A stretch of DNA of 64,000 bases. Source: an uncultured Tabrizicola sp. GTDB taxonomy: Bacteria > Pseudomonadota > Alphaproteobacteria > Rhodobacterales > Rhodobacteraceae. Below, piece after piece: positions 2 to 16,108 of this stretch. How positions within the stretch are numbered: position 1 is the first letter of the stretch; each line of letters begins with the position of its first letter. Under the pieces are notes generated by a model that saw only the letters and a program-made list of their open reading frames with translations, was not told where the DNA came from and searched no databases. Location of the stretch: the NCBI GenBank assembly GCA_964393035.1, contig CAYMRX010000003.1, forward strand, positions 212,846 through 276,845. The letters are read 5' to 3'. A program made the translations under genes and the position numbers.

Positions 2-37
2 TTTCGCTGCGCAGCGAAACGTGCCGGGGCGCCCGGC
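2..37 (-). terminator. Possible terminator hairpins downstream of the ferredoxin gene; the tail lies outside the window
   Basis: An 18-nt perfect palindrome TTTCGCTGCGCAGCGAAA lies at 2-19 and a GC hairpin GCCGGG-GCG-CCCGGC at 23-37, just 3' of the minus-strand stop at 51. No U-tract can be seen because the window ends. Confidence 0.3.
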
Positions 38-50
38 TCGATGGGTTGCC

Positions 51-371
51 TCAGCGCCCCGTAGCCACTTGAAAGACGGCGCCATCCAGCGCCTCTGTGA
101 CGATGATCTGGCAGGTCAGGCGACTGTTCTCGCGCGGCTCATGCGCGTTGAATTCAACCGTATCCGCCTCATCCTGCTTCTGTGCTGACAAAGCGCCATC
201 GGCGGCCGAAATCACATAGCAATGGCAGGTCGCGCACATCGCTGATCCGCCGCATTCCGCGATGATGCCCCTGACCCCGGCATTGCGCGCCGGATACATC
301 AATGGTTCGCCCACCGGGGCCTCGATTGCCCGCCGCGTGCCGTCAGCCTCGATGAATGTGACCTGAACCAT
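51..371 (-). CDS. 2Fe-2S ferredoxin, adrenodoxin/putidaredoxin type (likely P450 redox partner)
   Basis: 106 aa. Cys cluster ECGGSAMCATCHC plus a distal LTCQI Cys. ATG start with a GGGGGA RBS. Last gene of the P450 operon. Confidence 0.9.
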   Translation of the reverse strand: MVQVTFIEADGTRRAIEAPVGEPLMYPARNAGVRGIIAECGGSAMCATCHCYVISAADGALSAQKQDEADTVEFNAHEPRENSRLTCQIIVTEALDGAVFQVATGR

Positions 372-381
372 TCCGTCCCCC

Positions 382-1128
382 TCAGATGAACTGCCGCCCG
401 CCGTCGATCACCAGCGTCTGGCCGGTCATATAGCCTGACAGCGGCGAGGCGAGCATCAGCGCACCCCCAACGATATCTTCAACCTCTGCCGCCCGCTTCA
501 GCGCGGCGCGGTCGACACCATAGCTGCGGGCGTTTTCCATCAGGCCAAGGCTGGCTTCCGTCATAGTAAAACCCGGTGCCAGCACATTCACCCGCACCTC
601 ATCCGCCCCCATTTCCTTGGCCATGGTGCGGCTAAGACCAATGACCGCACCCTTCGAGGCGACATAGTGCATCCACAGCGGCGAGCCAGAAAACACGGTG
701 GACGAGGCGATGTTCACAATCGCGCCCTTGGCAGCACGCAACTGGGGCGAAAAGGCCCGGCACATCTGCCAGACGCCCTTGACGTTGACCGCCATGACCC
801 CGTCCCAGACATCTTCGTCAAGGTCTTCAAAGTTGCGCCGCTCCAACCCGCCATACATCGCGGCATTGTTCACCAGCACATCCACCCCGCCCATCTGCGC
901 CTGCGCCAGATCGGCCAAGGCACGGCAACTTGCGGTATTGGTCACATCGACCTGCGCGGCAATCGCGCCTGTCAGGGCGGCGGTTTCCTTGCAGCCCGCG
1001 AGGTTGACATCACAGGCCATGACCTGTGCGCCCGCCTTGACAAACGCCAGCACAAAGGCCCGGCCAAGCCCCCCGGCCGCGCCAGAGATCACCACCCGTT
1101 TGCCCGCAAGCCCCAGATCGGTCGTCAT
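382..1128 (-). CDS. Short-chain dehydrogenase/reductase (SDR)
   Basis: I take the internal ATG (MTTDLGLAGKRVVISGAAGGLGRAF) as the start. It overlaps the upstream stop by 4 nt (ATGA). Motifs: Gly-rich NAD site, NNAA, YVASK (YxxxK). Confidence 0.85.
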   Translation of the reverse strand: MTTDLGLAGKRVVISGAAGGLGRAFVLAFVKAGAQVMACDVNLAGCKETAALTGAIAAQVDVTNTASCRALADLAQAQMGGVDVLVNNAAMYGGLERRNFEDLDEDVWDGVMAVNVKGVWQMCRAFSPQLRAAKGAIVNIASSTVFSGSPLWMHYVASKGAVIGLSRTMAKEMGADEVRVNVLAPGFTMTEASLGLMENARSYGVDRAALKRAAEVEDIVGGALMLASPLSGYMTGQTLVIDGGRQFI

Positions 1129-1727
1129 GCGCCCGCCCCCATGTAGTTCGTCAATTCCAATTCTGCCCGCAAACTGGCGGTGAAGCCTTCGGCCATCGCC
1201 TTGCCCGGCGCCGTCAGCAGGCGCGGGTTTGACACCACCGAAACCATGTCGATGTATTCGGCGAGTGACCAATCATACCAGCCGCGAATGATCCGCATGC
1301 CATGCGGCGTGGTGCGCCAGCCCTTGTCGGCATCTTTCATCACCGCGTCATTCAGGGATCGCGCCTCGTTCGTGGTGTCATGGCCGTCGATGATGGCCAA
1401 AATCTCCTCCACCCGGCCCACGCCATGGTGGTTCAAGATGTCGCGCGCGATCACGACCGAGTGGCGTTCATGCTCAAAGACCAGATCACGCCGCGTCGGG
1501 TTGCGACCGATGGCGGCCAACAGCAACTCTGGCGGAATGCGTTTCCAGCCGACGTCATGAAGCAGGATCGCGGGCAGGACGACATCGGCCTCGGCCTCGG
1601 GCAGTTGCGACAAGAGCGCCTTGGCGACGCCATAGGCGACCTGCGTGTGTTCGTCATTGTTGCGCACATCAAGATAGGGCCTTGCCTCGGCCCAAAGTGG
1701 TTCATCCTCGGGGCGAAGCAGGCTCAT
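1125..1727 (-). CDS. HD-domain metal-dependent protein, paralog 2
   Basis: 200 aa. Motifs DEHTQ, LLHDVGW, EHERH, IIDGHDT, KDADKGW. ATGA overlap with the ALDH stop. Colinear similarity to the 3173-3769 product. Confidence 0.8.
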   Translation of the reverse strand: MSLLRPEDEPLWAEARPYLDVRNNDEHTQVAYGVAKALLSQLPEAEADVVLPAILLHDVGWKRIPPELLLAAIGRNPTRRDLVFEHERHSVVIARDILNHHGVGRVEEILAIIDGHDTTNEARSLNDAVMKDADKGWRTTPHGMRIIRGWYDWSLAEYIDMVSVVSNPRLLTAPGKAMAEGFTASLRAELELTNYMGAGA

Positions 1728-3160
1728 CGCGGAACCTCGTAGCTTAGATACATGGTCTTGTATTCCAGATAGCTTTCCACGCCGTAGCGCCCCTTTTCGC
1801 GGCCAAGCCCGCTTTCCTTGACGCCACCGAAGGGTTCATAATGCGAGGAGCGCTGAATGTCATTCAGCCAGACCGACCCGGCCTCCATCCCCTCGCACAG
1901 GGTCAGGCCACGGGCGAGATCGCGGGTAAAGACAAAGCCCGCAAGGCCATAGCGGTTGTCATTGGCAAAGGCCAAGGCTTGCCACGGGTCGCCCACCGGG
2001 CAAATGCCCAAGACCGGACCAAAGGTTTCTTCCGTCAGCACCAGCATGTCATGTGTGGCATCGGCCACCAGCGTCGGCTGATAATAGAACCCGCCGTCAA
2101 ACCCCGGCCCCGTCTGCCGTTGCCCGCCACAGAGGATGCGCGCGCCCTTGGTACGGGCGTCGTCGACCTGGATGGCGGAGTTGGCGTAGATCTTTTCATT
2201 GACCAAGGGGCCAAGATCACCCTCACCGCCTACCGGCGCGAGGGTGAATGTCTGCACCCTTGCCAACAGCTTTTGCAGGAAGCGGTCATAGACCGGGCGC
2301 TCGACGTAAATGCGGTTGACCCGATAGCAGAACTGGCCGGAATTGGCGAAACCGTGGCGGGCAATCGCCTCGGCGGCCTTGTCGATATCGGCATCGGCGC
2401 AGACGATGGCGGCAGATTGGCCGCCCAGCTCCAGCGTCACGCGCTTCATGGTTTGAACGGCGGCGGCGGCGATGGCCTTGCCTGCGCTGGTGCCGCCGGT
2501 GAAGGCTATCTTGCGGGGGACCGGGTGGTTGACCAGCGCATCGCCAATCGCCCGACCTGCACCGGTGACGACGTTGAACACACCGGCAGGCAGGCCCGCC
2601 TTGTAGAAAATCTCGGCCAGAAGCAGCGTTGAAGTCGGCGTGTCAGCGGAAGGTTTGGCGACCACGGTGCAACCGGCGACCAGCGCGGCCCCGAGTTTGA
2701 ACATCAAAAGGTTCAGCGGATAGTTGAACGGCGTGATCGCCACCACGACACCCACCGGATCGCGCGTCACGATGGTCTTTTCGCCAACCCCTCCGCTTGT
2801 CATATGCGCTTGCAGCCGCAGGCCTTCTTCGGCGTAGATGTCCAGCAGATCCGCAGCGCGCGCCACTTCTTGCAAGCAGGCAGGCAAAGGGCGGCCAAGT
2901 TCCTTGTGCAGTGCACCGCCCACCAGATCGGCGGCCTCGCGCATCGCCTGCGCCAGCCGCTTTTGCAGCCTCACGCGGTCGGCCATCGGCACCTGCCGCC
3001 AGCTTGCAAAGGCGCGTTGCGCAGAACGGATGGCGATATCAGCATCTTCGGCACCGCCCTGCGGCACGGTGTCAAAGACGGCACCAGAGCGCGGATCAGT
3101 CACGGGTTGCGTGGCACCGCTGACAGCGGGCGCCCAGCGCCCTTCGATGAACATTTCCAT
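1724..3160 (-). CDS. NAD(P)-dependent aldehyde dehydrogenase
   Basis: 478 aa. ALDH hallmarks: ELGGQS and the catalytic-Cys context NSGQFCY. Confidence 0.92.
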   Translation of the reverse strand: MEMFIEGRWAPAVSGATQPVTDPRSGAVFDTVPQGGAEDADIAIRSAQRAFASWRQVPMADRVRLQKRLAQAMREAADLVGGALHKELGRPLPACLQEVARAADLLDIYAEEGLRLQAHMTSGGVGEKTIVTRDPVGVVVAITPFNYPLNLLMFKLGAALVAGCTVVAKPSADTPTSTLLLAEIFYKAGLPAGVFNVVTGAGRAIGDALVNHPVPRKIAFTGGTSAGKAIAAAAVQTMKRVTLELGGQSAAIVCADADIDKAAEAIARHGFANSGQFCYRVNRIYVERPVYDRFLQKLLARVQTFTLAPVGGEGDLGPLVNEKIYANSAIQVDDARTKGARILCGGQRQTGPGFDGGFYYQPTLVADATHDMLVLTEETFGPVLGICPVGDPWQALAFANDNRYGLAGFVFTRDLARGLTLCEGMEAGSVWLNDIQRSSHYEPFGGVKESGLGREKGRYGVESYLEYKTMYLSYEVPR

Positions 3161-3172
3161 GGTCAGCGCCCC

Positions 3173-3769
3173 TTAAAGCACATGCACTTTCAAAGCCTTG
3201 CGCGTTTGCGCCAAGGCTGCCGTCGCCATCGTCCGGCCCGGCTCAGTTTCAAACTTGGTCAGGATTTTCTCATTCCGCGTGCAATTCTGCGCGGGCGTCT
3301 CGCCGAACCAATCACAGCCCACGGCCGTGCCCGTCACCTCATAGCGCCACAGCTTGTCGCTATCCCGCACGATGCGATCATTGAGGTGGCGCGGGTCAAT
3401 CCGCGTATCATGGCCGTCGATGATCTCGCAGACCTGCGCGATAACGGCCTCGTTCCACCCCGTTTCGCGCAGCACGGCCGTCGCCAGTTTCACGCCCTCG
3501 GCCTCGTGGCGATAGCGCACATCGGATTGCAGGATATTCTCGCCCCGGAACCCGTCCGAAATGATCGTCTCCATGTCGATCGCCCACCAGCCGATATCAT
3601 GCAGAAGGATCGCCAGCAGGCAGACATCGCGGTCGGCCTGCGGAAAATGCTCCAACAGCCGCGCGCACCAGTCGAAGGACAGGGGGATATGCACATCGTT
3701 CTTGCGCGCCCGCATATAGGGTTCTGCGGCGCGCCAGACCGGGTCATAGCGCGAAAGGTCGTGCGTCAT
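3173..3769 (-). CDS. HD-domain metal-dependent protein, paralog 1
   Basis: Start set at the internal ATG (MTHDLSRYDPVW...) by alignment with the paralog N-terminus (MSLLRPEDEPLW...). Motifs DVHIP, LLHDIGW, RYRHEAEG, IIDGHDT, RDSDKLW. Confidence 0.75.
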   Translation of the reverse strand: MTHDLSRYDPVWRAAEPYMRARKNDVHIPLSFDWCARLLEHFPQADRDVCLLAILLHDIGWWAIDMETIISDGFRGENILQSDVRYRHEAEGVKLATAVLRETGWNEAVIAQVCEIIDGHDTRIDPRHLNDRIVRDSDKLWRYEVTGTAVGCDWFGETPAQNCTRNEKILTKFETEPGRTMATAALAQTRKALKVHVL

Positions 3770-3823
3770 CGGTTTGGTCCGTTTTGGGCAGGGGTGGGGG
3801 GGCATTGCTGCCCCCCAATGCAT

Positions 3824-5635
3824 TCAATCAAGGATCGTCACGGTGCCGGTGTTGCCATCCACCCGCAGCCGCATGCCGGTCTTGATCTTGGCCGTCGCGG
3901 TGCCGGTGCCGGTCACGGCGGGCAGGCCGTATTCGCGGCAGACGATGGCGGCGTGGCTCATCATGCCGCCGATGTCGGTGACGGCTGCGGCGATCTTGCC
4001 AAAGACCGGGGCCCAGGACGGCGCGGTGACGGGCGTGACCAGAATCTCGCCCTTTTGCAATTCGCCCAACTGGTCGGGGCTGCGCAGAACCCGGGCGATG
4101 CCTTCGACAGCCCCCGGCGCTGCTGCCATCCCCTTCAGGCCACCGGACTCATCCCCCTTGCCCGTCCAGCGGTCAATGGCGTCCGAGGTGATGCCCCAGA
4201 GCATGATGGTGAAGGGTTCGGTGATGACCTCGGGCGGATCGTTCAACGCGGGCAGCGGCGGCTGGCTGGCCAAGGCCGACACCAAGACACGGCGTCGGGC
4301 AACCTCGGCCGGCCAGATGGCCGAACCGACATTCGGCGTGCCAATCGCCCAAGCCGCGCCGTAATCCCACAGCACATCGCGCACCTCGTTGCGGTTGAGG
4401 TAGAACATGCCGTCCTCATCCGGCCAGAAGCCCGCCTCAGACAGCATCTTCGACAATTCCCGCATCTTGCGCCAGAACACGCCCAGCGCCCAATGTTCGA
4501 TATAGAAGTTGTGGTCTTCCACGTAAGGGAACACGGTGCGCGCCAGGCCCAGCTTGCCGTCAAACACGGCCTGCGCCTCCTCATCCATCATGTCGCGGTA
4601 TTCTTCGGTGATCCGGTCACGCTCTTTCAACAACCGCTCGGTCGGGCGCTCGATCTGCTCGCCCGCCTTGGCGCGCGGGATATAGTCGCGCAGATACCCC
4701 AGCGGAATATCGAGATGGTCGATCCAGTATTTGTCGGTCGAATAGAAGCCGTTGCCGGAGGTAAAATTGAACCACGGATCCTGCGCGGCCTTCCACGCGG
4801 CCAGCCACTTGGCCCCGTTCGGTGCTTTGCCGACAGCGGCCAAAGCCTCATCCACCGAACCGGTCATCAGCGCGCCATCCACGCCAAGTTCCACCGCCAG
4901 ACGGGCCAGTTTCTTGATCTCGTCATCGGGGCGGAACAGCTCGCTGTCCACACCCTGCACCATCTTGGCAATCGCCTGATCTGGAATGGTGGGGAATTGC
5001 GATTTCACGAAACCGAAGAAATCCAGATAGGCCGCATAGCCCAGATTCAGGAATTCGAAGTGGTATTGCCAAGTCTTGTAGCTGAGTTCGATCAGCTTGT
5101 CGTAGGCCTCGAAAATCGCGTTGGTGTTGTCCAGCCCGACGCCACCCTTGACCCAATCCACCGGCACGACATCCGGCAATTCGGTGAAGGAAATCGCGCT
5201 CATCTGCGCGATCATGTCCATGACCTTGGTCTTCCAGTTGGCCAGAAGATCGTTCCAGTTCATGAAGTAATGCCCGGCGCGGTCCAGAAACTGCGGGATG
5301 CGGGCCTCGATGTTTTCGGGGGCCACGGCCACCGGGCTGAAATAGACGAACCCGTTCAGGATGCGGTAGTCGATGCCGTTGGCGGGCGGCACCAGAAGAT
5401 GGCGGCTATTGTATTGGCCAAGGCATTTGATCGCGAAATCAAGGAAGATCACATCGAACGGGCGCAGCGGCGTCGGCCAGTGCTGGCTGTTGCAGAACCA
5501 GAACTTTTCGTCGTCCTCCTTGCGGCGCGAGGGCTGGAACTGGGTGTAATAGGGGTAAAGCCCCTCCCAGCCTTCCGCCCCCTTCGGTGCCTTCACATCA
5601 AAGGCACTGGGGAACATCGGGGTCTTGGCGTCCAT
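3824..5635 (-). CDS. PEP-utilizing enzyme with C-terminal swivel phospho-histidine domain (PpsA-like large subunit of a split PEP synthase/phenylphosphate synthase-type enzyme)
   Basis: 603 aa. The C-terminus GEILVTPVTAPSWAPVFGKIAAAVTDIGGMMSHAAIVCREYGLPAV is a typical PEP-utilizer mobile domain with the catalytic His. Strong RBS AGGGAGGAAA. Confidence 0.85.
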   Translation of the reverse strand: MDAKTPMFPSAFDVKAPKGAEGWEGLYPYYTQFQPSRRKEDDEKFWFCNSQHWPTPLRPFDVIFLDFAIKCLGQYNSRHLLVPPANGIDYRILNGFVYFSPVAVAPENIEARIPQFLDRAGHYFMNWNDLLANWKTKVMDMIAQMSAISFTELPDVVPVDWVKGGVGLDNTNAIFEAYDKLIELSYKTWQYHFEFLNLGYAAYLDFFGFVKSQFPTIPDQAIAKMVQGVDSELFRPDDEIKKLARLAVELGVDGALMTGSVDEALAAVGKAPNGAKWLAAWKAAQDPWFNFTSGNGFYSTDKYWIDHLDIPLGYLRDYIPRAKAGEQIERPTERLLKERDRITEEYRDMMDEEAQAVFDGKLGLARTVFPYVEDHNFYIEHWALGVFWRKMRELSKMLSEAGFWPDEDGMFYLNRNEVRDVLWDYGAAWAIGTPNVGSAIWPAEVARRRVLVSALASQPPLPALNDPPEVITEPFTIMLWGITSDAIDRWTGKGDESGGLKGMAAAPGAVEGIARVLRSPDQLGELQKGEILVTPVTAPSWAPVFGKIAAAVTDIGGMMSHAAIVCREYGLPAVTGTGTATAKIKTGMRLRVDGNTGTVTILD

Positions 5636-5677
5636 TTGCGTTTCCTCCCTGAAACGGACTTTTGGTTGGACCGTGCG

Positions 5678-6742
5678 TCAGCGCTTCACGGTCAAGGCTG
5701 AATTCAGCGTGCCGACGATCCCCATCATGCCGGTTGCATAGGTCTTTTTCGGGGTTTCGGTCTTTTTCTGGCTCCAGATCGTCTCGGGCCGCGATTGCAG
5801 CGCGAGAAGGTTTTCACCCTCGGGCAGATCGGCGTCGATCGCCCATTCCACGTCCTGCGGGCATTTGTTCTGCCGCTCCAGCCGCTTGGCCAAGGCGGCC
5901 ACGGCGACCACCTCGGCATCGGTCAGGCATTGGCGGTGGCGACGGTCAGCGGACACCTCGCGCTCCACCGCCTCACCGGCCTCGGCGTCGCCCACAAGTT
6001 CGACATGCTTGTCTGAAATCTTGCGGTCGATGATTTCCATCAGCACTTTTTCAACGGTGAAATTGTCAGGCGTCACCACGCCCGAGACCACCATTTCGCC
6101 CAGGCCCCAGGAGGCATCGATCACGATCTTGGTCCGGTCGCCGTTCACCGGGTCCAGCGACATCACCACACCGGCGGCGCGGGCGTTGACCATCTTCTGC
6201 ACGCCGACACTCATCAAAACGTCGATATGCGGGATGCGGTTCTTCTCGCGGTAGGCCACGGCGCGGGTGGTATAAAGCGAGGCCCAGCAATCGCGGACCT
6301 TCTCCACCACCTGATCGGCCCCGCGCACCCAAAGGTAGGTGTCTTGCTGGCCGGCAAAGGACGCGTCCGGCAGGTCTTCCGCCGTAGCAGACGACCGCAC
6401 GGCCACGGGCATATCATCGCCCATCGCGGCATAGGCGGCGCGGATATCAGCCTCAACCTGCGGCGGCAGTTTGTGGCTGCGGATACGGATGCGGATGGCT
6501 TGGGCGGCGCGGTCGATCTGATCGATGTCGAAGGGGTCCACGCCCGCCAGATGGCGTTCGATTTCAGCTTTCATGCCGTGGTGATCCAGCATCGCCTGAT
6601 AGGCTTCGGTGGTCACCGCAAAGCCCGGCGGCACCGCCACCCCGGCCTGTGTCATTTCGCCCAAACTGGCGCATTTGCCGCCGACGCGGGCGAAATCGGC
6701 ATGGCTGATGCGGCTGAAATCCAGCGTGTAAAGGTCGCTCAT
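5678..6742 (-). CDS. PEP/pyruvate-binding ATP-grasp domain protein (PpsB-like small subunit)
   Basis: 354 aa. The N-terminus VGGKCASLGEM...GVAVPPGFAVT is typical of the PPDK/PEP synthase nucleotide-binding domain. The start overlaps the P450 stop by 4 nt. Confidence 0.85.
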   Translation of the reverse strand: MSDLYTLDFSRISHADFARVGGKCASLGEMTQAGVAVPPGFAVTTEAYQAMLDHHGMKAEIERHLAGVDPFDIDQIDRAAQAIRIRIRSHKLPPQVEADIRAAYAAMGDDMPVAVRSSATAEDLPDASFAGQQDTYLWVRGADQVVEKVRDCWASLYTTRAVAYREKNRIPHIDVLMSVGVQKMVNARAAGVVMSLDPVNGDRTKIVIDASWGLGEMVVSGVVTPDNFTVEKVLMEIIDRKISDKHVELVGDAEAGEAVEREVSADRRHRQCLTDAEVVAVAALAKRLERQNKCPQDVEWAIDADLPEGENLLALQSRPETIWSQKKTETPKKTYATGMMGIVGTLNSALTVKR

Positions 6743-7995
6743 TTGCCCGCCCCTGTTTTCCCCGTCTCCACCATCACCGATTGCGGCACGCGGAAGCCAA
6801 GGTTGCGGTGGTATTGCGCCTCGAACCCGTCCACCAACTTCATGTCAGGGAAGCGTGCGGGGAGTTGTTTGAACAGTTCCGTGGCCTCCATCTTGGCAAG
6901 CTGGAAGCCAAGGCAGTAGTGGATGCCATAGCCAAAGGACAAATGGGTGCGGGCATTGCTGCGCGTCAGGTTCAGCTTTTCGCCATCGGGGAATTGCGCC
7001 TCATCCCGGTTGGCAGACCCTGTAATCATCAGGATTTCCGCGCCCTCCGGCAGGTCCACCCCGCCGACCGTGGTGGCGTGGCGGGCCTTGCGGCGCCAGC
7101 CGATGACCGAAGGGGTAAAGCGCAGCATTTCCTCCACCGCATTGGGGATCAGCGCCGGATCGGCCTTCAACTGCTCCCAGGCGTCGCGGTGCTGCATGAT
7201 GGTCAGCACATAATTGCCCATGAAGGTCGAAGTTGTCTCGTGCCCCGCGAATAGCGTGGAATAAAGCACGCCCGCAATTTCCTCATCGCTGATCTCGGCG
7301 CCCTCGGCCTGCAAGCGCAAAAGGTCGGACGGAAAGTCATCGCCCGGCGTCTTGCGGCGCATGTCCAGCAGATCGTGGATGTATTTCCAATAGGCCACCA
7401 TGTCATGGGCCACCTCGACCTGTTCGTCGTCGGTCAGCTCGCCCCATGTCATCTTGCCCCGGCTGGCGCCGTATTGCTTGATCTTCGGTACATCCTCGTC
7501 CGGGATGCCCATCAGGGTGAACAGCACATAGGCCGGCACCGGATAGGCGACCACTTCCCAAAAATTCACCGGGCCGCCTGCGCCCTGCGCCTCCAACTGG
7601 TCGAGATGGCGGCGCACGATGCCTTCGATCTGCGGCTGGATCGACTTGAACCGGCGCGGGCCAAAGCAGGACTGCGCCACCTTGCGGATACGGGTATGAT
7701 CGGGGGGGACGCGGGCGGTCAGGCCGGAATAGGCGGTGAAGCCGCCATCCGTCAGAACCTTGCGCCCCGCTTCGCACATCGCCCGCACGGGCTTTTGCGC
7801 GTTTTCGGAACTGAAGGTCTTGTAGTCGTCGAAAATCGCCTTGATGTCGTCATAGCGCGTCACCACCCAATAATTGGTGGCTTCGTGAAAGAAGATCGGT
7901 TCTTCGCGGCGAAGCTCGGCCCATTTGGCATGGGGTTTGTTCAGATCGAACGGGTCAAAGCCGTCGGCCGGCGTGGCGCCTGCGTGGTCCTTCAT
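6739..7995 (-). CDS. Cytochrome P450 monooxygenase
   Basis: 418 aa. Heme-binding loop FGYGIHYCLG, I-helix AGHETT, ExxR (EEMLR). RBS AGGGAGGA. Confidence 0.93.
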   Translation of the reverse strand: MKDHAGATPADGFDPFDLNKPHAKWAELRREEPIFFHEATNYWVVTRYDDIKAIFDDYKTFSSENAQKPVRAMCEAGRKVLTDGGFTAYSGLTARVPPDHTRIRKVAQSCFGPRRFKSIQPQIEGIVRRHLDQLEAQGAGGPVNFWEVVAYPVPAYVLFTLMGIPDEDVPKIKQYGASRGKMTWGELTDDEQVEVAHDMVAYWKYIHDLLDMRRKTPGDDFPSDLLRLQAEGAEISDEEIAGVLYSTLFAGHETTSTFMGNYVLTIMQHRDAWEQLKADPALIPNAVEEMLRFTPSVIGWRRKARHATTVGGVDLPEGAEILMITGSANRDEAQFPDGEKLNLTRSNARTHLSFGYGIHYCLGFQLAKMEATELFKQLPARFPDMKLVDGFEAQYHRNLGFRVPQSVMVETGKTGAGK

Positions 7996-8077
7996 CGCGG
8001 TATCCTCCCTATGATGTCCGGCCGCTCTCTCCCAAAAGCTGAGCCTGACATGTTGAGAATCAGCCTAAGTCCGCTGG

Positions 8078-8094
8078 CTTTGGTTTTTCTTTGG
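8078..8094 (-). promoter_or_regulatory. Direct repeat CCAAAG-AAAAA-CCAAAG (11-nt periodicity) upstream of the P450 operon; candidate SARP-type activator site
   Basis: The plus strand reads CTTTGGTTTTTCTTTGG. On the coding (minus) strand it lies 83-99 nt upstream of the P450 ATG. It matches the repeat at 9616-9632 at 16 of 17 positions. Confidence 0.4.
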
Positions 8095-8120
8095 CGGTTT
8101 TCACGGCAGGCGAAAAACCG

Positions 8121-9566
8121 TCACCCCACCTTGGAGAGATCTCGATAAAGTGATTTGATTTCAATACCTTCTCTGGCACCTATCGCCTCCAACGCGGCGC
8201 GGTATTGCCGATACTGTCGATGCATGGCGTCCAACCGGCCTTGGGCGACGAAGATTTTCATGGCCTCGGCATTGGCCCCTTCGCTGGCCGGGTCAATCGC
8301 CAGCGCCTTTTGGCAATGGGCCAGCGCCTCGCGGGTGCGCCCCGAGGACATGCAAACCTTGGCAAAGTCATACTGCAATTTCACCGCCATTTCGCGCAGC
8401 CAGATCCGGCGCGGCATGCACCAATCGTCGGTTTCCGAGCGCACATATTCCAGCGGCAAATCTTCAAACAATTCACCGCCGTAAAGCTGGTCGGCGGCGG
8501 CATAGACGCGCAAGGCCGCGTTCAACTCGCCGCGCTTGTAAAGCGACAGGCCCCGGCGGCAAAGCTGCTCGAACGTGTCAATGTCGATCCAGCTTCCGGG
8601 CGGGGCTTTCAGCCGGTAGGTCTCGCCCACCCGCTCCACAGCCGCCGCGTCGCCCAGCGTCTTGCGCAGCATGGCAACCGTGTGGTGCAGACGGGTGCGC
8701 TTCAAATCCTCTGATTCGCCCTCGGGCCAGAGAAGTTCGCCCAACTGGTCGGCATGCGCCCCCTTGTCGCCGCTTTGCAAAAGATAGGCAAAGAGCGTGC
8801 GGGTCTTTTTCGGCGCGCCACCGGGAAGCTGCCAGTTCACCTCTTGCCCGCCGATCAATACCTTGAGCCGCCCAAGGCAATGCACATGCCAGCGCAAGCC
8901 CCCCACCGGGTTGCCAAGCCCCGCGCGTGGCGGCGCGAGCCATGACGGCGTGGCCCCGCGCGCAAACATCTGCCCCTGCTGGCGGCGTGCCAAAAGCCCG
9001 GCATAATCGGGAACCACCCGGCCCAGCATGAACGAAAGCTGTTCATCCAAAGCACCCCCTTCCAAGAGGCTGGCCGGAATCCAATACGGGTTTTCATAAA
9101 GGCCAGAGGGCGCCAGAAACTGCCGGTGCGCCCGCAGCGCCGCCTGAATCTGCTCCTCGATCGTCAGATCCTGATTGTAGAGCGACACCACCGGCAGGTT
9201 GAAATGCGCCGCCAGCCGGTCGGCCACCCCGCCCCAGTTTTCCAGCCCCGCAACGCCCTGCATATTACCAACGACCCAGCCCATATCGACCACCAGCGCC
9301 GCGATACCCTTGGCGGTGCCCAGCTCTTGTCGCAGCCGCACGAAGGCTTCCTCGGGGTCCATCGGCGCATGATCCAGCCCCACCTCGGCAAAGCCGATCC
9401 GCCGCGCGGCGGGCATATCCGGCAAAAGGCGTAAATCGTCACTGACCAGCCAGGTCTTTGCCGGGGTCGCCAATTGGCCCAGCGCCTTGGCCACAAAACC
9501 CGGCACCGCGAAATCGGCAATCAAGGCGGCATTGATGCGTTCTGCGGCTTTGGGTTTGCGCGGCAT
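8121..9566 (-). CDS. Transcriptional regulator: N-terminal MEDS-like sensory domain, winged-helix DNA-binding domain and BTAD/TPR domain (SARP/AfsR-DnrI type)
   Basis: Start set at the internal ATG (MPRKPKAA) with a GGAGG RBS. The middle segment LGRLKVLIGGQEV...RTLFAYLL...QLGELLWPE...LHHTVAMLRKTL...YRL is wHTH-like. The C-terminus with DIDTFEQL...ALRVY...GELFEDLP and TPR-like helices is BTAD-like. The N-terminal ...VVSLYNQDL...ALRAHRQFL...YENPYW resembles MEDS. Confidence 0.8.
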   Translation of the reverse strand: MPRKPKAAERINAALIADFAVPGFVAKALGQLATPAKTWLVSDDLRLLPDMPAARRIGFAEVGLDHAPMDPEEAFVRLRQELGTAKGIAALVVDMGWVVGNMQGVAGLENWGGVADRLAAHFNLPVVSLYNQDLTIEEQIQAALRAHRQFLAPSGLYENPYWIPASLLEGGALDEQLSFMLGRVVPDYAGLLARRQQGQMFARGATPSWLAPPRAGLGNPVGGLRWHVHCLGRLKVLIGGQEVNWQLPGGAPKKTRTLFAYLLQSGDKGAHADQLGELLWPEGESEDLKRTRLHHTVAMLRKTLGDAAAVERVGETYRLKAPPGSWIDIDTFEQLCRRGLSLYKRGELNAALRVYAAADQLYGGELFEDLPLEYVRSETDDWCMPRRIWLREMAVKLQYDFAKVCMSSGRTREALAHCQKALAIDPASEGANAEAMKIFVAQGRLDAMHRQYRQYRAALEAIGAREGIEIKSLYRDLSKVG

Positions 9567-9676: not shown

Positions 9677-9795
9677 CTGGGAGGTTCTGACGGAAATCAT
9701 GGGTCCGGCGTTTTGCCGGGGCGGTGGCGCTTTGCGGCCAGTGCAATCATGCCCCATGCCGGATGGCCCCCACGAGAGGGGAGAGAACGCGGCGC

Positions 9796-11382
9796 ATGTC
9801 CGATTTGGGTCAGTTCGATTACGTCATCGTCGGCGCCGGATCTTCCGGGGCGGTCTTGGCCAATCGTCTCTCCGCCGATCCGCGCCTGACCGTCTGCCTG
9901 ATCGAGGCGGGGCCTGCCGACCGCAGCCCTTTCATCACCGTGCCTTTGGGGGTGATGAAGCTGTCGAAGGATGCGCGGCACAACTGGCTTTACACAACCG
10001 CGCCGCAAACCGGATTGGAAGGCCGCGAAATCTCGGTGCCGCGCGGCAAGGTGCTGGGCGGGTCTTCGGCGATCAACGGCATGATCTACATCCGCGGCCA
10101 TCGGGCGGATTACGACGCTTGGGCCGCGGCGGGTTGCACCGGCTGGGGGTATGAGGATGTTCTGCCGCATTTCCGCCGGTCAGAGAACAACCGCCGGGCG
10201 GGGATCGACACCCACCACCACGGCACAAGCGGGGAATTGGCGGTCGCAGACCTGCGCGATGTGAATCCGGTCGATCACGACTTCATCGCGGCGGCGGCTG
10301 AATTGCAACTTCGCCCCTGCCCCGATTTCAACATGGCCGAACCCGAGGGCATGGGCATCTATCAGGTCACGCAAAAGGACGGAAAACGCCATTCGACGGG
10401 CCGCGCCTTTCTGACGGCGGCGGTCAAGGCACGGCCGAACCTGCATATCCTGACCGGGGCCGAGGTGCTGGGCCTGACACTGGCCGACAGGCGCGCGACG
10501 GGCGTTGCCCTGCGCCGCGCCGGGCGGGTGGAGACGGTTCGCTCTCGGGGCGAGGTGATCTTGTCGGCGGGTGCCATCGGTTCGCCCGATATCCTTCTGC
10601 GCTCAGGGATAGGGGCCGGGCTGGCGCATCACCTGCCCGGCGTCGGGCAGAACCTGCAAGACCATGTCGATTGCATGGTGATCTGCCAAAGCCGTTCGCG
10701 CACGCCTTATGGCATTTCCATTCCCGCCCTGCCGCGTCTGGCGCTGGAGGGGGCGAAGTGGCTCATCGGCAATCGCGGCATGCTGTCGTCGAACATGGTG
10801 GAGGCGGGGGGCTTTGTGCGCAGCTCACCGGCCGAGGATCGCCCCGACATCCAGTTCCACATCATTCCGGGGCGCAAGAGCCACCGGGGGCGGATGGTGG
10901 AATATGGCCACGGGGTTTCGGTGCATACTTGCGTCTTGCGCCCCGAAAGCCGGGGATCCGTCAGCCGCACCACCCCAACCGGCGCTCCGGTGATCGACCT
11001 TGGCCTTTTGACCGATGACCGCGACATGGTTCGGCTGCTGAAAGGTGTCAAACTCGCCCGCCAAATTCTGCGGCAAGGCCCGATGGCCCGGCATGGCCTG
11101 ACCGAAATCATCCCCGGCAACGGCGTGGAAAGTGACGAATCCCTGCGCGCCTATGTCCGCGCCAATGCCCGCACCGTCTATCACCCGGTCGGCACCTGCG
11201 CGATGGGAACCGGACCTTTGGCCGTGGTTGACCCGCGCCTGCGTGTCCATGGCCTCCGGGGCCTGCGCGTGGTCGATGCCTCGATCATGCCGACCATCGT
11301 AAGCGGGAACACCAATGCCCCCGCCATCATGATCGCCGAGAAAGCCGCCGAGATGATCCTTGAGGACCGCAAGTCGGCCTGA
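9796..11382 (+). CDS. GMC-family FAD oxidoreductase (choline/alcohol dehydrogenase-like)
   Basis: Start at the internal ATG (MSDLGQFDYVIVGAGSSGAVLANRLS, the FAD GxGxxG site). Also GGSSAINGMIY and C-terminal GMC motifs (HPVGTCAMG). Confidence 0.92.
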   Translation: MSDLGQFDYVIVGAGSSGAVLANRLSADPRLTVCLIEAGPADRSPFITVPLGVMKLSKDARHNWLYTTAPQTGLEGREISVPRGKVLGGSSAINGMIYIRGHRADYDAWAAAGCTGWGYEDVLPHFRRSENNRRAGIDTHHHGTSGELAVADLRDVNPVDHDFIAAAAELQLRPCPDFNMAEPEGMGIYQVTQKDGKRHSTGRAFLTAAVKARPNLHILTGAEVLGLTLADRRATGVALRRAGRVETVRSRGEVILSAGAIGSPDILLRSGIGAGLAHHLPGVGQNLQDHVDCMVICQSRSRTPYGISIPALPRLALEGAKWLIGNRGMLSSNMVEAGGFVRSSPAEDRPDIQFHIIPGRKSHRGRMVEYGHGVSVHTCVLRPESRGSVSRTTPTGAPVIDLGLLTDDRDMVRLLKGVKLARQILRQGPMARHGLTEIIPGNGVESDESLRAYVRANARTVYHPVGTCAMGTGPLAVVDPRLRVHGLRGLRVVDASIMPTIVSGNTNAPAIMIAEKAAEMILEDRKSA

Positions 11383-11439: not shown

Positions 11440-12693
11440 ATGAACCTGAAGAACGGATTGGCCGGGGCCGTCGCCCTCGCCTTCACTTGCATCGCGGGGG
11501 CCGCCTTTGCCGCGCCCTCATGCGGGGCGAACACGGGGCAGGCCGCAACCGGCGCCCCGATCATTGTGGGCGGGATCTACTCCAACGGCGCGCCGGGCGA
11601 CTGGTCTTCGTCCACCGACGCGGCGGCGGCCTATTTTGCCTGCGTGAACGCCAATGGCGGCATCAACGGCCGACCGATTGAATACCATGTCGAGGATGAC
11701 CAATGGAACCCCGAGGCCGCAGCGGCGGCAGCGGCCAAGCTGGTGAATGACCAAAAGGCCGTCGCCATGGTCGGCAACGGCTCTTTCACCGAAATGGCCG
11801 TCAACGCGCAAACCTATGTTGACCAAGGCATCATGGCGATGGCCAGCGCCTGCGCGATTTCGGAATGCTTTGAAACGCCGAACCTTGTGTCCACCAACCA
11901 AGGCCCGCTCGCCTCGAACCTTGGTGCCGCGCAATATGCGCAGGAGGAACTTGGGTCCAAGAACGTCGCCTGCATCGGGCTGAACATTCCGAACAACGGC
12001 ATCTGGTCGTGTCAGGCGGTCATCGACTACATGACGTCGAAAGGCGGCACCGGCAGCATGGCCATGCTGAACCCCGGCGCGCCGGATGTGAACTCGGCCC
12101 TGCTGGAGGCCGTGGCTTCGGGCGCGGATACGATCCTGATGAACCTGCCCGCTGGCCTTGCGCTGGCTGTGCTGAAGGCCGCCCAGGAACAGGACCTGCG
12201 CGACAGCTACACCTGGATCGCGCCGACGCCGCTTTATGACCTGTCGGTGCCGGATGCGGTGGGCGACTACTGGCACGGCAAGATCTGGGTCAACGCCGAG
12301 CTTGCGCCGATCAATCAGGGCGGGCCGGACGGGCAGAACTGGCTGGCGGTTCTGGACACCTTCGGCAAGGCCGACGATCCGCGCGACACCTTCAGCCAGG
12401 CCGGTTACCTTTCGGCGCAGTTCTTCGTGAAGGCGCTGCTGGAGATGGACCCGGCGGGCCTTGATGACCGCGCCGCCGTGACGGCGGCGATCAAAGGGAT
12501 CAAGGGCTACACCTCGGATCTGATGTGCGGCCCCTATTATGTCGGCGACGCCGCCTTCCACCAGCCGAACCACGCGGGCCAGATGGTCAAGGTCGTGGCC
12601 GGTGGCTTCGAGGTTGTGCGCCCCTGCTATGAATATGACAGCGCCTATTTCGACCGCCACAAGGACGTCGAAAAATCCTTGGGCATGAACTGA
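11440..12693 (+). CDS. ABC transporter periplasmic substrate-binding protein, LivK/branched-chain amino acid-type fold
   Basis: 417 aa. Signal peptide MNLKNGLAGAVALAFTCIAGAAFA, then a type I periplasmic binding pattern (IIVGGIY...GGINGRPIE...). GAGGAAA RBS. Confidence 0.88.
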   Translation: MNLKNGLAGAVALAFTCIAGAAFAAPSCGANTGQAATGAPIIVGGIYSNGAPGDWSSSTDAAAAYFACVNANGGINGRPIEYHVEDDQWNPEAAAAAAAKLVNDQKAVAMVGNGSFTEMAVNAQTYVDQGIMAMASACAISECFETPNLVSTNQGPLASNLGAAQYAQEELGSKNVACIGLNIPNNGIWSCQAVIDYMTSKGGTGSMAMLNPGAPDVNSALLEAVASGADTILMNLPAGLALAVLKAAQEQDLRDSYTWIAPTPLYDLSVPDAVGDYWHGKIWVNAELAPINQGGPDGQNWLAVLDTFGKADDPRDTFSQAGYLSAQFFVKALLEMDPAGLDDRAAVTAAIKGIKGYTSDLMCGPYYVGDAAFHQPNHAGQMVKVVAGGFEVVRPCYEYDSAYFDRHKDVEKSLGMN

Positions 12694-12751
12694 GCAATCC
12701 TAGCCCCCGGCCTGACCTTGGCTGGGGGTTTTCCCCTATCGCGGAGCCAGC

Positions 12752-13708
12752 ATGACGCGCAGCGCAATATTGAACGGGGTGATCTATGCCGTCCTGATGG
12801 TCGGCATTTGGGTCACGCTGGCGGGCGGCATGCCGTTCAAGGTGACGGGCATGTTCCTTGCCTCGGGCCTTGCCATCGGTTCGCTTTACGCCTTGGGCGG
12901 GATTGGCATGGTGGTGCTGTATCGCGCCTCGGGTGTCTTGAATTTCTCGGCCGGGGCCGCCGGGGCGGCAGGCGCAATGACCGCGTGGCAATGCGTGCAA
13001 TGGGGTCTTTGGCCCCCCTTGGGTTGGGCCGCCTGTATCGCCGTCGCCCTTGCGCTGACTTTGGCCTATGGCCGATACCTTGCGCCCCTTCTGGCGTGGC
13101 GCGAAACCGTGGTGAAAGCGGTCGCCACCCTTGGCTTTGCCCTTATCATTCTGGGTCTTGTCTCTTTCATCTGGATCGACGACCCTCGAAGTCTTGAATT
13201 GCCCACCGATCAAACCGGCGTGGTGCTGTTCGGCTTGCGCGTCACCGCCACCCGACTGATTGCCTTTGCCGCCGCCATCGCCATTGTCATCGCCATCTGG
13301 GCCTTCCTTGGTCGCACCGAAGTGGGCTTGCAGATGCGCGCCGTCGCCAATTCGCGCGACCTGTCGGCGCTGCTTGGCATCCCCATTCGGCGGGTGGAAA
13401 CCATCGCCTGGGGCATCTCGGGCCTCTTGGCAGGCTTCACCGGGCTGATGTTCGCCAACCTGATCCGGCTTGAACCTGTGGTCATCACCTTCATGGTCAT
13501 CCCCTCCATCGCAGCGGCCCTCGCGGGCAGGCTGAACTCGCTGGCGCTTGTGCTGGTCGGAGGCCTGTCGATGGGCGTCATCGAGAGTCTGCTGACGCTC
13601 TCGCCCACCCTGAAAGGGGTCCGCCCCATCGCGCCCTTCGTCATCGCCGCCCTTGTCCTGCTGTGGAGCCAGCGCGGCACCAAACTCACCTTCGGAGGGC
13701 GCGACTGA
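12752..13708 (+). CDS. ABC transporter permease (LivH-like)
   Basis: 318 aa polytopic membrane protein in an SBP-permease-permease-ATPase-ATPase operon. Confidence 0.88.
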   Translation: MTRSAILNGVIYAVLMVGIWVTLAGGMPFKVTGMFLASGLAIGSLYALGGIGMVVLYRASGVLNFSAGAAGAAGAMTAWQCVQWGLWPPLGWAACIAVALALTLAYGRYLAPLLAWRETVVKAVATLGFALIILGLVSFIWIDDPRSLELPTDQTGVVLFGLRVTATRLIAFAAAIAIVIAIWAFLGRTEVGLQMRAVANSRDLSALLGIPIRRVETIAWGISGLLAGFTGLMFANLIRLEPVVITFMVIPSIAAALAGRLNSLALVLVGGLSMGVIESLLTLSPTLKGVRPIAPFVIAALVLLWSQRGTKLTFGGRD

Positions 13709-14691
13709 TGGACCGTTCGCTCATCCGCCTTACCCCGTCCGGCGTCTCTGGCCTGATCTTTGCGGGCCTGTGCTTTGTCTTCCTGCCCCTGCTGGCAGGG
13801 TCATACTGGCTGTCGGTCTTCACCTCGGCGGCGATCTTTGCCATGGCGATTTCCGGCGTCGCTTTCATGTATGCCCGGCTTGGCATGGTCAGCCTGACCC
13901 AAGTCGGCCTGATGGGCATCGGCGGCTGGGTGACGCTGCGGCTGAACCATCTGTGGAACTGGCCGTTCGAGGTGAACATGGTGCTGGCCGCCCTTGCCAC
14001 CATGATCTGCGGCTGGGTCCTTGCCCTGCCTGCGCTCAGGATGCGCGGGCTTTACCTCGCCCTTGTCACGCTGATGGCCGCAGGGGGGCTGGAGATCCTG
14101 TTTGCCACCTATCAATTCCCCAATGGCGGCGCAGGGTTCTGGGGCGTCAAGATCGGCTCGACCGAGCCGTTCCGCCGCCCGGTTCTGGCGCAATCGCCCG
14201 AGGCTTATCTGCGCTACTGCATCGGCATTGCCACGCTTGGCTTTCTGTTCATCGAAGGCCACCGCCGCCTGTTTCCCGGCCGGGCCTGGGCACTGATCCG
14301 GCGCAGTGAGGCCGCCGCCATGGCCGCGGGCGTCAATGTCACGCTGTACAAAACCTGGGCCTTTGGCATCGCCGGCGCGATTGCCGGGGCGGCGGGTGCG
14401 CTGCTTGCAGGATCGCTTGGGCTTTTGGATGACGGCACCTTCCGGTCGTCAGAATCCATCATGCTGTTTGCCCTTGCCGTGGTTGGCGGGGCGCGGTTCT
14501 GGCTGGGCGCGGTGATCGCGGCGTTCCTGTTCCGCATCCTGCCGGGCCTGCTGAACACATGGGGCGTCGATACCGATCTGGCCTTTGTGATCTTCGGTGC
14601 GGGATTGTTGCACGCGCTTATCACCGCGCCAAACGGGATCGCCGGGCAGGTCCATGACCTGATCGCCAAACTGCGGGGGGCCAAACCATGA
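13708..14691 (+). CDS. ABC transporter permease (LivM-like)
   Basis: Start at the internal ATG (MDRSLIRL), overlapping the upstream TGA by 1 nt (TGATG). Polytopic membrane protein. Confidence 0.85.
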   Translation: MDRSLIRLTPSGVSGLIFAGLCFVFLPLLAGSYWLSVFTSAAIFAMAISGVAFMYARLGMVSLTQVGLMGIGGWVTLRLNHLWNWPFEVNMVLAALATMICGWVLALPALRMRGLYLALVTLMAAGGLEILFATYQFPNGGAGFWGVKIGSTEPFRRPVLAQSPEAYLRYCIGIATLGFLFIEGHRRLFPGRAWALIRRSEAAAMAAGVNVTLYKTWAFGIAGAIAGAAGALLAGSLGLLDDGTFRSSESIMLFALAVVGGARFWLGAVIAAFLFRILPGLLNTWGVDTDLAFVIFGAGLLHALITAPNGIAGQVHDLIAKLRGAKP

Positions 14692-15407
14692 TCGAAATCA
14701 ACGCCGTCACCGTGCGCTTTGGCGGGCTGGTCGCCCTGAACGAGGTGTCAGCCAGCCTGACCGCCCCTGTCGCCGGGATCATCGGACCGAATGGTGCGGG
14801 CAAGACCACGCTGATGAATGTGGTTTCGGGTTTCATCACCGCGCGGTCGGGCCGGGTGATGGTGGACGGGCAGGATTTCCTGCCGCTCGCCCCGCACAAA
14901 CGCGCGCACAGAGGGCTTCGGCGGTCGTTCCAGAAAGAACAGATCGCCGATGATCTGACGGTGCTGGAAAACGTGCTGGTGCAAACCGACTGGTCGCTGA
15001 CGGGCGCGCGCACCAAGCGGGCCGAGGCGATGGAGATGCTGGCGCTGGTGGGCCTTGCCGATCGCGCCGGCACGCTGGGGGCGGCGCTGTCGGGGTTCGA
15101 ACGCCGCCTGACCGATGTCGCCCGCTGCATGGTCGGGCAACCCCGGCTTATCATGTTCGACGAACCGGCAGGCGGGATGAGCGTTGAGGAAACCTCCCGG
15201 CTGGGCGATCTGATCGTGCAAATCCACGACCACACCGGCGCGCAGACGGTCATCATCGACCATGATGTCGAATTGATCCGCCGCATCTGCGCCGAAACGC
15301 TGGTTCTGGACTTTGGCCGCCGCATCGCCTTTGGGCCGACGGCAGCAGTGCTGGCCGACCCCAAGGTCAAGGCCGCCTATCTTGGAACCGAGGAGATCGC
15401 CCCATGA
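14688..15407 (+). CDS. ABC transporter ATP-binding protein (LivG-like)
   Basis: Walker A GPNGAGKTT and Walker B LIMFDEPAGG. 4-nt overlaps with both neighbours. Confidence 0.92.
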   Translation: MIEINAVTVRFGGLVALNEVSASLTAPVAGIIGPNGAGKTTLMNVVSGFITARSGRVMVDGQDFLPLAPHKRAHRGLRRSFQKEQIADDLTVLENVLVQTDWSLTGARTKRAEAMEMLALVGLADRAGTLGAALSGFERRLTDVARCMVGQPRLIMFDEPAGGMSVEETSRLGDLIVQIHDHTGAQTVIIDHDVELIRRICAETLVLDFGRRIAFGPTAAVLADPKVKAAYLGTEEIAP

Positions 15408-16108
15408 CATTGCAGGTTCAGGGGCTGACGGTTCAGGATGGAAACCGAACGGCCGTTCAGAATGTCGATCTGACGGTGGAGCCGGGCAAGGTGACGGCGG
15501 TCATTGGCGCCAATGGTGCGGGGAAATCCGAACTGGTGCTGGCGCTGGCCGGCATGTTGCCAATCACGGCTGGCAGCGTGCTTCTGGATGGCAAGCCACT
15601 GGTCGCCAAATCCCCCGAGGCACTGCGCCGCGCGGGCATTGCAGCCGTGCCGGAAGGCCACCGGGTGCTGACCGATCTTTCCATCGACGACAATCTGCGC
15701 GCCGCCGGCAGCCTTGTCAAAGGCGGGCTGGAGGCACGGCTGGCGGAAACCTACGCCATCTTCCCCGAACTTGCCGAACGCAAACCCCAGCTTGCAGGCA
15801 CGCTTTCTGGCGGGCAGCAGCAGATGGTGGCGCTGGCCCATGCCCTGATGAGCCGCCCGCGCTATCTGCTGATTGACGAAATGTCGCTGGGTCTTGCCCC
15901 CCTGATCGTCAAGCGGCTTTTGGGCGTGGTGACGGATCTGAAGACGCGCGGCACCGGGATTTTGCTGATCGAGCAATTCACCGATCTGGCGGTTGGCATC
16001 GCCGAAAGCGCCGTCGTGCTGCGCGGCGGCAAGATGCGCTACAACGGCCCGGCACAGGTGCTGACCGAAGACGCCAAACGCCTGCATGAGGCCTATTTTG
16101 GCACCTGA
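15404..16108 (+). CDS. ABC transporter ATP-binding protein (LivF-like)
   Basis: Walker A GANGAGKSE, signature LSGGQQQM, Walker B LLIDEMSLGL. Confidence 0.92.
   Translation: MTLQVQGLTVQDGNRTAVQNVDLTVEPGKVTAVIGANGAGKSELVLALAGMLPITAGSVLLDGKPLVAKSPEALRRAGIAAVPEGHRVLTDLSIDDNLRAAGSLVKGGLEARLAETYAIFPELAERKPQLAGTLSGGQQQMVALAHALMSRPRYLLIDEMSLGLAPLIVKRLLGVVTDLKTRGTGILLIEQFTDLAVGIAESAVVLRGGKMRYNGPAQVLTEDAKRLHEAYFGT

Follow-up and report, generated by a model that had tools for sequence, protein, structure and literature searches.

We analysed a 64,000-nt stretch of the genome of an uncultured Tabrizicola sp. (assembly GCA_964393035.1, contig CAYMRX010000003.1, positions 212,846 to 276,845; hereafter the window) and found that an eight-gene operon on its minus strand (51-7995) probably encodes an alphaproteobacterial (Paracoccaceae, Tabrizicola-like) homolog of the Cre pathway, which would serve the aerobic catabolism of p-cresol and other 4-alkylphenols. 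We put the probability of this reading at about 0.8. The eight genes encode a cytochrome P450, the two subunits of a split dikinase, two HD-domain phosphohydrolases (HD1 and HD2), an aldehyde dehydrogenase (ALDH), a short-chain dehydrogenase/reductase (SDR) and a [2Fe-2S] ferredoxin. In Corynebacterium glutamicum, 4-cresol and alkylphenols are reportedly catabolised via phosphorylated intermediates, as Du et al. are said to have described in JBC in 2016 and in PNAS in 2017. A first-pass annotation of the window had described the operon as a gene set belonging to no characterised pathway. We found that the set matches the cre (4-cresol/alkylphenol) cluster of C. glutamicum, a characterised catabolic cluster, gene for gene (creJ, I, H, G, F, D and C). 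The operon is a reductase-less, two-HD, rearranged Cre pathway and is not without precedent.

The published C. glutamicum cluster runs in the order creJ, I, H, G, F, E, D, C (cg0645 down to cg0637), in which creH and creI encode 4-methylbenzyl phosphate synthase, creJ, creE and creF a class I P450 system, creG an alcohol dehydrogenase, creC an aldehyde dehydrogenase and creD a phosphohydrolase (PMC7764795). It has been reported that CreHI phosphorylates 4-cresol, that CreJ acts with CreE and CreF as the P450 system and that CreD is the phosphohydrolase (PMC12167813, PMC9549646, PMC7764795). The activities found in that organism are ATP-dependent phosphorylation of 4-alkylphenols, followed by P450 oxidation solely of the phosphorylated substrate (PMC12167813, PMC9549646). 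The genes at a locus of Corynebacterium sp. A21 (L056) stand in the order IclR, P450, PPDK_N, PEP-utilizers, SDR, Fer2, ferredoxin reductase, HD and ALDH, and this gene list and order equal those of the published cre cluster (PMC7764795).

We confirmed through the list of open reading frames (ORFs) and hidden Markov model searches that all eight minus-strand ORFs at 51-7995 are present, with the Pfam content that had been described. Seven of the eight functions of the C. glutamicum pathway were found in the window operon, with identities of 36-57%. The larger, CreH-like dikinase subunit (3824..5635, minus strand; 603 aa), predicted to bind the substrate and to carry the swivel phospho-His domain, is 57% identical to L056 CreH; its PEP-utilizers domain lies at the C-terminus (residues 527-597), and the ORF includes GGMMSHAAIVCREYGLP. 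The CreI-like ATP-grasp subunit of the predicted aryl-phosphate dikinase (5678..6742, minus strand; 354 aa; PPDK_N, E 3e-113) is 54% identical to L056 CreI. The SDR (382..1128, minus strand; adh_short/adh_short_C2, E 6e-54), a CreG-like alcohol dehydrogenase, shows 56% identity to L056 CreG and 52-60% across the actinobacterial loci, and its TGxxxGxG and YxxxK motifs are present. The CreF-like ferredoxin (51..371, minus strand; Fer2), the predicted redox partner of the P450, has the cysteine pattern CX5CX2C...C and is 43% identical to L056 CreF. HD1 (3173..3769, minus strand; Pfam HD) is 41% identical to L056 CreD and groups with CreD-type sequences, while the second paralog, HD2 (1125..1727, minus strand; Pfam HD), is 30% identical to the same protein. 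The ALDH in the CreC role (1724..3160, minus strand; Aldedh, E 1e-149) is 36% identical to L056 CreC. The gene order differs from that of C. glutamicum in that the window operon has its HD and ALDH genes between the kinase and the SDR/ferredoxin genes.

The P450 (6739..7995, minus strand; Pfam p450) is CreJ-like and falls into the CYP288 family by the 40% identity rule. Among solved structures it matched PDB 5GWE, 5XJN and 7CCF with E values of 6e-125 to 9e-126 and 47-48% identity, the next solved P450 following at 1e-73. We take these three entries to be CreJ (CYP288A2) of C. glutamicum. P450s 83-88% identical to the 5GWE sequence occur in three Corynebacterium loci from our genome scan, which used the P450 alignment as query and kept the loci of the best 80 of 482 relatives. 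The name CYP288A2 is given in PMC9357085. PDB 5GWE has also been cited as a vitamin-D-binding P450 (PMC10879549); we set this description aside because of the 83-88% identity to Corynebacterium cre-locus P450s, and PDB entry codes were probably mixed up in that paper. The window P450 has the heme motif FGYGIHYCLG and the I-helix motif AGHETT. In place of the CreJ phosphate-binding residues, we used clade-specific conservation, defined as positions with at least 97% conservation across 76 cre-linked P450s at which unlinked P450s differ. The results showed that the window P450 keeps 21 of 21 such positions, S62, S63, E64, Q67, S90, G91, R95, Y202 and Y245 among them. Its stop codon overlaps the kinase start as ATGA, which places a CreJ-clade P450 directly against the kinase genes.

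The first-pass annotation had likened the 354-aa and 603-aa proteins to the phenylphosphate synthase PpsB/PpsA, and they do form a split dikinase of that type, with PPDK_N and PEP-utilizers on separate adjacent proteins. For the 603-aa protein as for Corynebacterium CreH, the best NCBIfam model is NF006150 (1017 and 1312 bits, respectively; cut-off 650), a likeness to the Cre pathway that stands beside the CYP288-family P450 with its clade-specific residues. The identity of the 603-aa protein to every cre-linked homolog is 56-64%; about 45% is the figure reported between the Cre, Hpe and Pps kinase clades (PMC12167813). The ATP-grasp subunit has 42% identity to HpeI (PDB 9GOJ) versus 54% to CreI. 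The catalytic His of the 603-aa protein lies in GGMMSHAA and is preceded by Ser, the residue found at this position in CreH and PpsA, whereas HpeH has Cys (PMC12167813). In the databases this protein has thousands of close relatives, all with generic names such as "PEP-utilizing enzyme", and its protein-search matches were solely such close, generically named relatives, with no PpsA, HpeH or CreH reference among them.

It had also been asked whether the Pps-like pair, the P450 and the HD genes are co-inherited, and we found that they are. In a count of loci whose sequence extended 8 kb or more past the P450, and of genes on the same strand, the kinase pair, HD, ALDH and SDR genes were beside the P450 in 11/11 alphaproteobacterial loci (P450 77-94% identical to that of the window), 47/47 actinobacterial loci (45-50% identical) and 2/2 Chloroflexi loci (46-48% identical), and in none of the 7 loci whose P450 is 39-43% identical. 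Each of the 11 alphaproteobacterial and 47 actinobacterial loci also has the operon ferredoxin, which was not found in the Chloroflexi loci. The same eight genes stand in the same order in every one of the 11 alphaproteobacterial loci with enough flank, so the arrangement is far from chance; the order is unchanged in Tabrizicola oligotrophica, Neotabrizicola shimadae, Mesobacterium pallidum, Sagittula sp. S175, Pararhodobacter species and Zhengella mangrovi (Hyphomicrobiales). The Chloroflexi clusters (L059, L076, L077) share the alphaproteobacterial gene order, ALDH lineage and BTAD regulator and the lack of a reductase. As gene order, ALDH lineage and BTAD regulator are common to both phyla, the comparison suggests lateral transfer of the whole module between alphaproteobacterial and Chloroflexi lineages.

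The mechanism that we propose was taken from the family literature (PMC12167813, PMC9618137, PMC9549646, bioRxiv 2022.04.28.489975); each catalytic step and the substrates are predictions, which we draw from gene content, homology, conserved catalytic motifs and co-inheritance. The 354-aa subunit would use ATP to pyrophosphorylate the swivel His of the 603-aa subunit, the gamma-phosphate would be hydrolysed and the beta-phosphate moved to the phenolic OH, giving an aryl phosphate, AMP and Pi. The CreJ-like P450 would then use the phosphate as an anchor and hydroxylate the benzylic carbon of the alkyl side chain, with electrons from the operon [2Fe-2S] ferredoxin and a reductase encoded elsewhere. 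The SDR and the ALDH would oxidise the alcohol and then the aldehyde to the acid, one or both HD phosphohydrolases would take off the phosphate to yield 4-hydroxybenzoate, and PobA would convert this to protocatechuate. The window stops 50 nt past the ferredoxin gene; the downstream flank was read on contig CDDARV010000019.1 of GCA_974429245.1 (locus L001). A pobA gene was found there, 9 kb downstream of the operon and outside the window (TIGR02360, 630 bits, cut-off 539), and the end product expected of the Cre pathway, 4-hydroxybenzoate, fits its presence.

Several points weigh against the Cre assignment. By tblastn with Corynebacterium CreE, no CreE was found in the window, in L001 or in any of the alphaproteobacterial and Chloroflexi loci, while the same search found a ferredoxin reductase in 47/47 actinobacterial loci; in keeping with what had been noted earlier, no ferredoxin reductase was found in the 64-kb window or in 10 kb beyond it. 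The ALDH is 34-40% identical to actinobacterial CreC, compared to 55-57% to the ALDH of the Chloroflexi cre-like clusters, and may be a non-orthologous replacement of CreC. HD2 is an extra paralog without a counterpart step in the C. glutamicum scheme. The regulator upstream of the P450 is of the BTAD/TPR (SARP-like) type (8121..9566, minus strand; BTAD E 2e-14 plus TPR; 481 aa in public assemblies) and thus differs in type from the IclR of Corynebacterium. A P450 identity of 47% leaves room for a different substrate, which may be another alkylphenol or a methoxyphenol. Finally, the three PDB entries are presumably CreJ, and both this identification and the details of the Cre chemistry depend partly on secondary citations.

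HD2 and the regulator have relatives elsewhere. HD2 is 40-49% identical to the second HD gene found in about 60% of actinobacterial cre loci and absent from the Corynebacterium loci, and because of this distribution we regard it as a putatively old, uncharacterised accessory of cre clusters. The HD2-type gene sits at varying positions, for example at about 8245 in L024, 18931 in L027 and 14334 in L019. An alignment showed that the metal ligands of the HD superfamily (H..HD..H..HD..D) are conserved in both HD1 and HD2; no relative of the HD proteins was found in PDB. In Rhodobacterales the BTAD/TPR regulator gene precedes the P450 gene, as does a 31-33% identical counterpart in Chloroflexi; in Zhengella and Actinobacteria an IclR takes its place.

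To our knowledge, studies of the Cre strategy, in which a temporary phosphate serves a P450 as directing group, have been confined to Corynebacterium. There the system is valued as a "chemomimetic" biocatalyst for selective alkylphenol oxidation. Our results show that a complete version without its own reductase is common in aquatic Rhodobacterales; the generically named genes gain a usable annotation, and new enzyme variants become available for biocatalysis. Alkylphenols arise from tyrosine fermentation and lignin, and the operon points to their turnover by abundant aquatic heterotrophs. In the literature searched, we found no description of a Cre-type cluster in Alphaproteobacteria; one survey names two CYP288B P450s in this class without a function (PMC8197338). 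The window operon further differs from the C. glutamicum cluster in its alphaproteobacterial host, in the GMC oxidoreductase and ABC (ATP-binding cassette) transporter upstream, and in a kinase-less carboxylase operon that adjoins it.

This carboxylase operon gives rise to a reading that extends the Cre assignment. It converges on the Cre-type operon outside the window and, with the genes beyond it, occupies 10481-20321 of L001, where no kinase gene is present. Its genes encode an IclR regulator, a biotin carboxyl carrier protein, biotin carboxylase, carboxyltransferase, a HAD-IIA phosphatase, an acetoacetate-CoA-ligase-type synthetase and an SDR, and beyond them lie an Amidohydro_2 gene (CouO/HpeF-like, amidohydrolase family) and pobA. 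The operon matches the Hpe gene list family by family, minus hpeHI (PMC9618137). Because HpeCBA carboxylates solely the phosphorylated ketone (PMC9618137), a carboxylase operon of this type would need a kinase. We consider it possible, although at somewhat less than even odds, that the Cre-type and the kinase-less Hpe/Acv-type operons form one island in Rhodobacterales and some Hyphomicrobiales, in which one CreHI-like dikinase would serve both chemistries and its phosphate would be the handle for P450 side-chain oxidation and for biotin-dependent carboxylation. The kinase might supply the carboxylase directly, by phosphorylating 4-hydroxyacetophenone or acetovanillone. It might also open a route from 4-ethylphenol through 4-ethylphenyl phosphate, 1-(4-phosphophenyl)ethanol and 4-phosphoacetophenone to carboxylation and then, after dephosphorylation, CoA ligation and cleavage, to 4-hydroxybenzoate. 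This would be an undescribed aerobic 4-ethylphenol route parallel to the p-cresol route, with HD2 as the phosphatase for one branch.

The distribution of kinases argues for such sharing. Carboxylase clusters convergent to the cre-like operon and without their own kinase were found in the window genome, Sagittula, Zhengella, Pararhodobacter marinus, Rhodovulum and Maritimibacter, and partial views from Tabrizicola, a Paracoccaceae metagenome-assembled genome and Planktotalea gave the same kinase-less adjacency, which spans two orders, Rhodobacterales and Hyphomicrobiales. Three stand-alone carboxylase clusters, those of Celeribacter, Sinisalibacter and Oricola, each have a UPF0261 gene among their own genes (L092 15901-17157; L095 16069-17298; L096 11856-13109). 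The aromatic kinase MarK belongs to the UPF0261 family (PMC12624787), of which no homolog was found in the window or L001. Since the presence of UPF0261 is complementary to cre-like operon adjacency in the sampled loci, a CreHI-like kinase shared with the carboxylase is suggested; moreover, kinases of the dikinase family are broad in substrate range (PMC12167813; bioRxiv 2022.04.28.489975). If true, it would explain why most Hpe/Acv-type carboxylase clusters have no linked kinase and would join two phosphate-dependent aromatic pathways so far handled separately.

Other results speak against a shared kinase. The adjacency is not obligatory, as Neotabrizicola shimadae and Pararhodobacter aggregans carry the eight-gene operon without an adjoining carboxylase. 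Mesobacterium is an exception, with a carboxylase remnant beside the operon, a second carboxylase locus without a nearby kinase, and a UPF0261 gene near the cre-like operon. The search for further kinases covered 20-kb loci. The SDR of the carboxylase operon is not specifically like the 1-(4-hydroxyphenyl)ethanol dehydrogenase of Aromatoleum (4URE), which ranks about 60th among generic SDR matches. In addition, kinase and carboxylase genes were reported to be clustered in just 52 of 836 cases (PMC13101465). The remnant in Mesobacterium pallidum is a 141-aa carboxyltransferase fragment (L088 17384-17809), and at the second locus of this species the HAD phosphatase gene is split in two (L091 11468-12291). 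In Sagittula sp. S175, a HipB/HipA toxin–antitoxin pair is inserted between the cre-like and carboxylase operons (L089 16047-17611).

The window operon itself is distinct from the Hpe/Acv pathways. In Rhodococcus rhodochrous GD02 (hpeHICBADEF) and Sphingobium lignivorans SYK-6 (acvABCDEF), a homologous two-component dikinase phosphorylates a 4-hydroxyphenyl substrate and the phosphate is later removed, as in the Cre pathway proposed here. However, the Hpe pathway works without a P450, ferredoxin, HD protein or ALDH, and its phosphatase belongs to the HAD superfamily, whereas that of the window is of the HD type. Judged by the identities of the ATP-grasp subunit and by the Ser where HpeH has Cys, the window kinase is not orthologous to HpeHI. 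The Hpe-type carboxylase and HAD genes form the separate convergent operon outside the window, and many, not all, carriers of the eight-gene operon have the two side by side. MarK of Novosphingobium aromaticivorans plays the same role by phosphorylating phenolic monomers ahead of the Acv/Hpe carboxylase, but it is a single-component enzyme of unrelated fold that yields ADP rather than AMP.

The first-pass annotation had proposed a new pathway in which P450 hydroxylation comes first, the Pps-like pair phosphorylates the new hydroxyl or enol, and HD-mediated phosphate chemistry follows. We regard this model as very unlikely. The gene content, the extra HD paralog and the absent reductase speak for it, and nothing else does; for each of the components, the nearest relative that has been characterised belongs to the Cre pathway, in which the substrate is phosphorylated before it is oxidised, the P450 shares all residues specific to the cre-linked clade, and co-inheritance with Cre-type clusters spans three phyla. 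The proposed order is the reverse of that in the Cre scheme, in which an existing phenolic OH is phosphorylated first.

Less probable still is a PpsAB phenylphosphate synthase for phenol activation, as in the anaerobic pathway of Thauera aromatica. PpsABC of Thauera aromatica and Aromatoleum also contains a split dikinase that works by a ping-pong mechanism via phospho-His, phosphorylates a phenolic OH and forms AMP and Pi, as predicted for the window pair, and the two-protein architecture, the similar sizes and the Ser before the catalytic His as in PpsA agree with this. But PpsABC operates without oxygen, together with PpsC and a UbiD-type phenylphosphate carboxylase, while the window operon has neither and has an O2-dependent P450, to which the pair is invariably linked. 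As had been noted earlier, the Pfam annotations of the module, of the 10 kb downstream of it and of the related loci showed no PpsC-like or UbiD-type carboxylase gene. The 56-64% identity to cre-linked CreH also exceeds the approximately 45% between the Cre, Pps and Hpe clades (PMC12167813).

We hold a secondary-metabolite tailoring cluster to be the least probable of the alternatives: a SARP/BTAD-type regulator and weak NCBIfam matches to PigC, RedH and the rifampin phosphotransferase RPH would fit it, but these matches score 100-310 bits against cut-offs of 1000-1700, core biosynthetic genes are absent, the neighbours are catabolic (the ABC uptake system, pobA and the carboxylase operon), and other lineages carry an IclR regulator instead of BTAD. 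HpeHI and CreHI have been described as two-component homologs of RPH (PMC12167813), and RPH has the same domains as the dikinase pair (ATP-grasp, swivel His and an RPH-type substrate-binding domain); unlike the split pair, it consists of one chain of about 865 aa, and its function is antibiotic resistance. The NCBIfam RPH model gave 105-308 bits for the kinase proteins against a cut-off of 999, and rifamycin-type resistance was rejected on these scores. A prodigiosin-type ligase was likewise rejected, with PigC/RedH matches far below the cut-offs.

The eight genes are one compact operon and probably co-translated, as the first-pass annotation had proposed from their close packing. The sequence confirms the ATGA start/stop overlaps at 6739-6742, 1724-1727 and 1125-1128, HD2 having one at both ends of its gene, and the remaining gaps measure 10, 12, 42 and 54 nt. 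The sole longer intergenic gap is the 125-nt leader/promoter region 5' of the P450 (7996..8120, minus strand), whose start codon is preceded by a good Shine-Dalgarno sequence, GGAGG. Within 7996..8120 we found no match to the sigma-70 consensus, and promoter scans gave nothing above chance; no Rfam family was found in window positions 1-12000, the leader included. The SDR start was corrected to the ATG at 1128 (248 aa), instead of the TTG at 1272. The HD1 gene most likely starts at 3769 (198 aa), since it is called there in public assemblies and this start fits the ortholog alignment. A 965-aa ORF at 2804-5701 of the window (plus strand), which lies opposite the HD1 and CreH-like genes, is not a gene but results from the high G+C content.

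A terminator scan found no terminator-like site above chance inside the operon. Two GC-rich hairpins read from the sequence at 2..37, in the 160-nt gap between the convergent operons, had been taken to mark the operon end. The hairpins exist, but a terminator function was not borne out: they have no T-tract, there is no terminator-like site in the gap, and in folding, the intergenic region as a whole did not surpass shuffled sequences (z = -1.06). That the operon stops after the ferredoxin gene follows from a convergent gene located 160 nt downstream on contig CDDARV010000019.1.

Upstream of the regulator, a divergent gene encodes a GMC-family oxidoreductase (9724..11382, plus strand; GMC_oxred_N, GMC_oxred_C), whose true start is probably slightly downstream of the GTG at 9724. 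Copies 66-91% identical occupy the same position in alphaproteobacterial loci, and the protein scores under the choline dehydrogenase cut-off. It is followed by a five-gene ABC uptake system of the branched-chain type (11440..16108, plus strand; Pfam), with a Peripla_BP_6 binding protein, two permeases and two ATPases; Walker motifs are present in the ORF at 15404-16108, and Neotabrizicola, Mesobacterium and Zhengella have the same gene set next to the operon. The GMC protein may be an aryl-alcohol oxidoreductase and the ABC system a substrate importer (9724-16108). In Zhengella mangrovi, an extra ALDH gene and a gene for a thiamine-diphosphate enzyme with a benzoylformate-decarboxylase-like architecture lie between the GMC gene and the IclR gene (L090 3113-6419).

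The annotated part of the window from 16.4 to 42.5 kb contains housekeeping genes and nothing further for the pathway. It includes a gene for a CcrM-like N6-adenine DNA methyltransferase with a RAMA domain at 36613-37737, around which genes for MutY, an AcrB-type pump, PmbA and a DEAD-box helicase were found. Because housekeeping genes surround the CcrM-like gene, the catabolic module sits in an ordinary chromosomal context.

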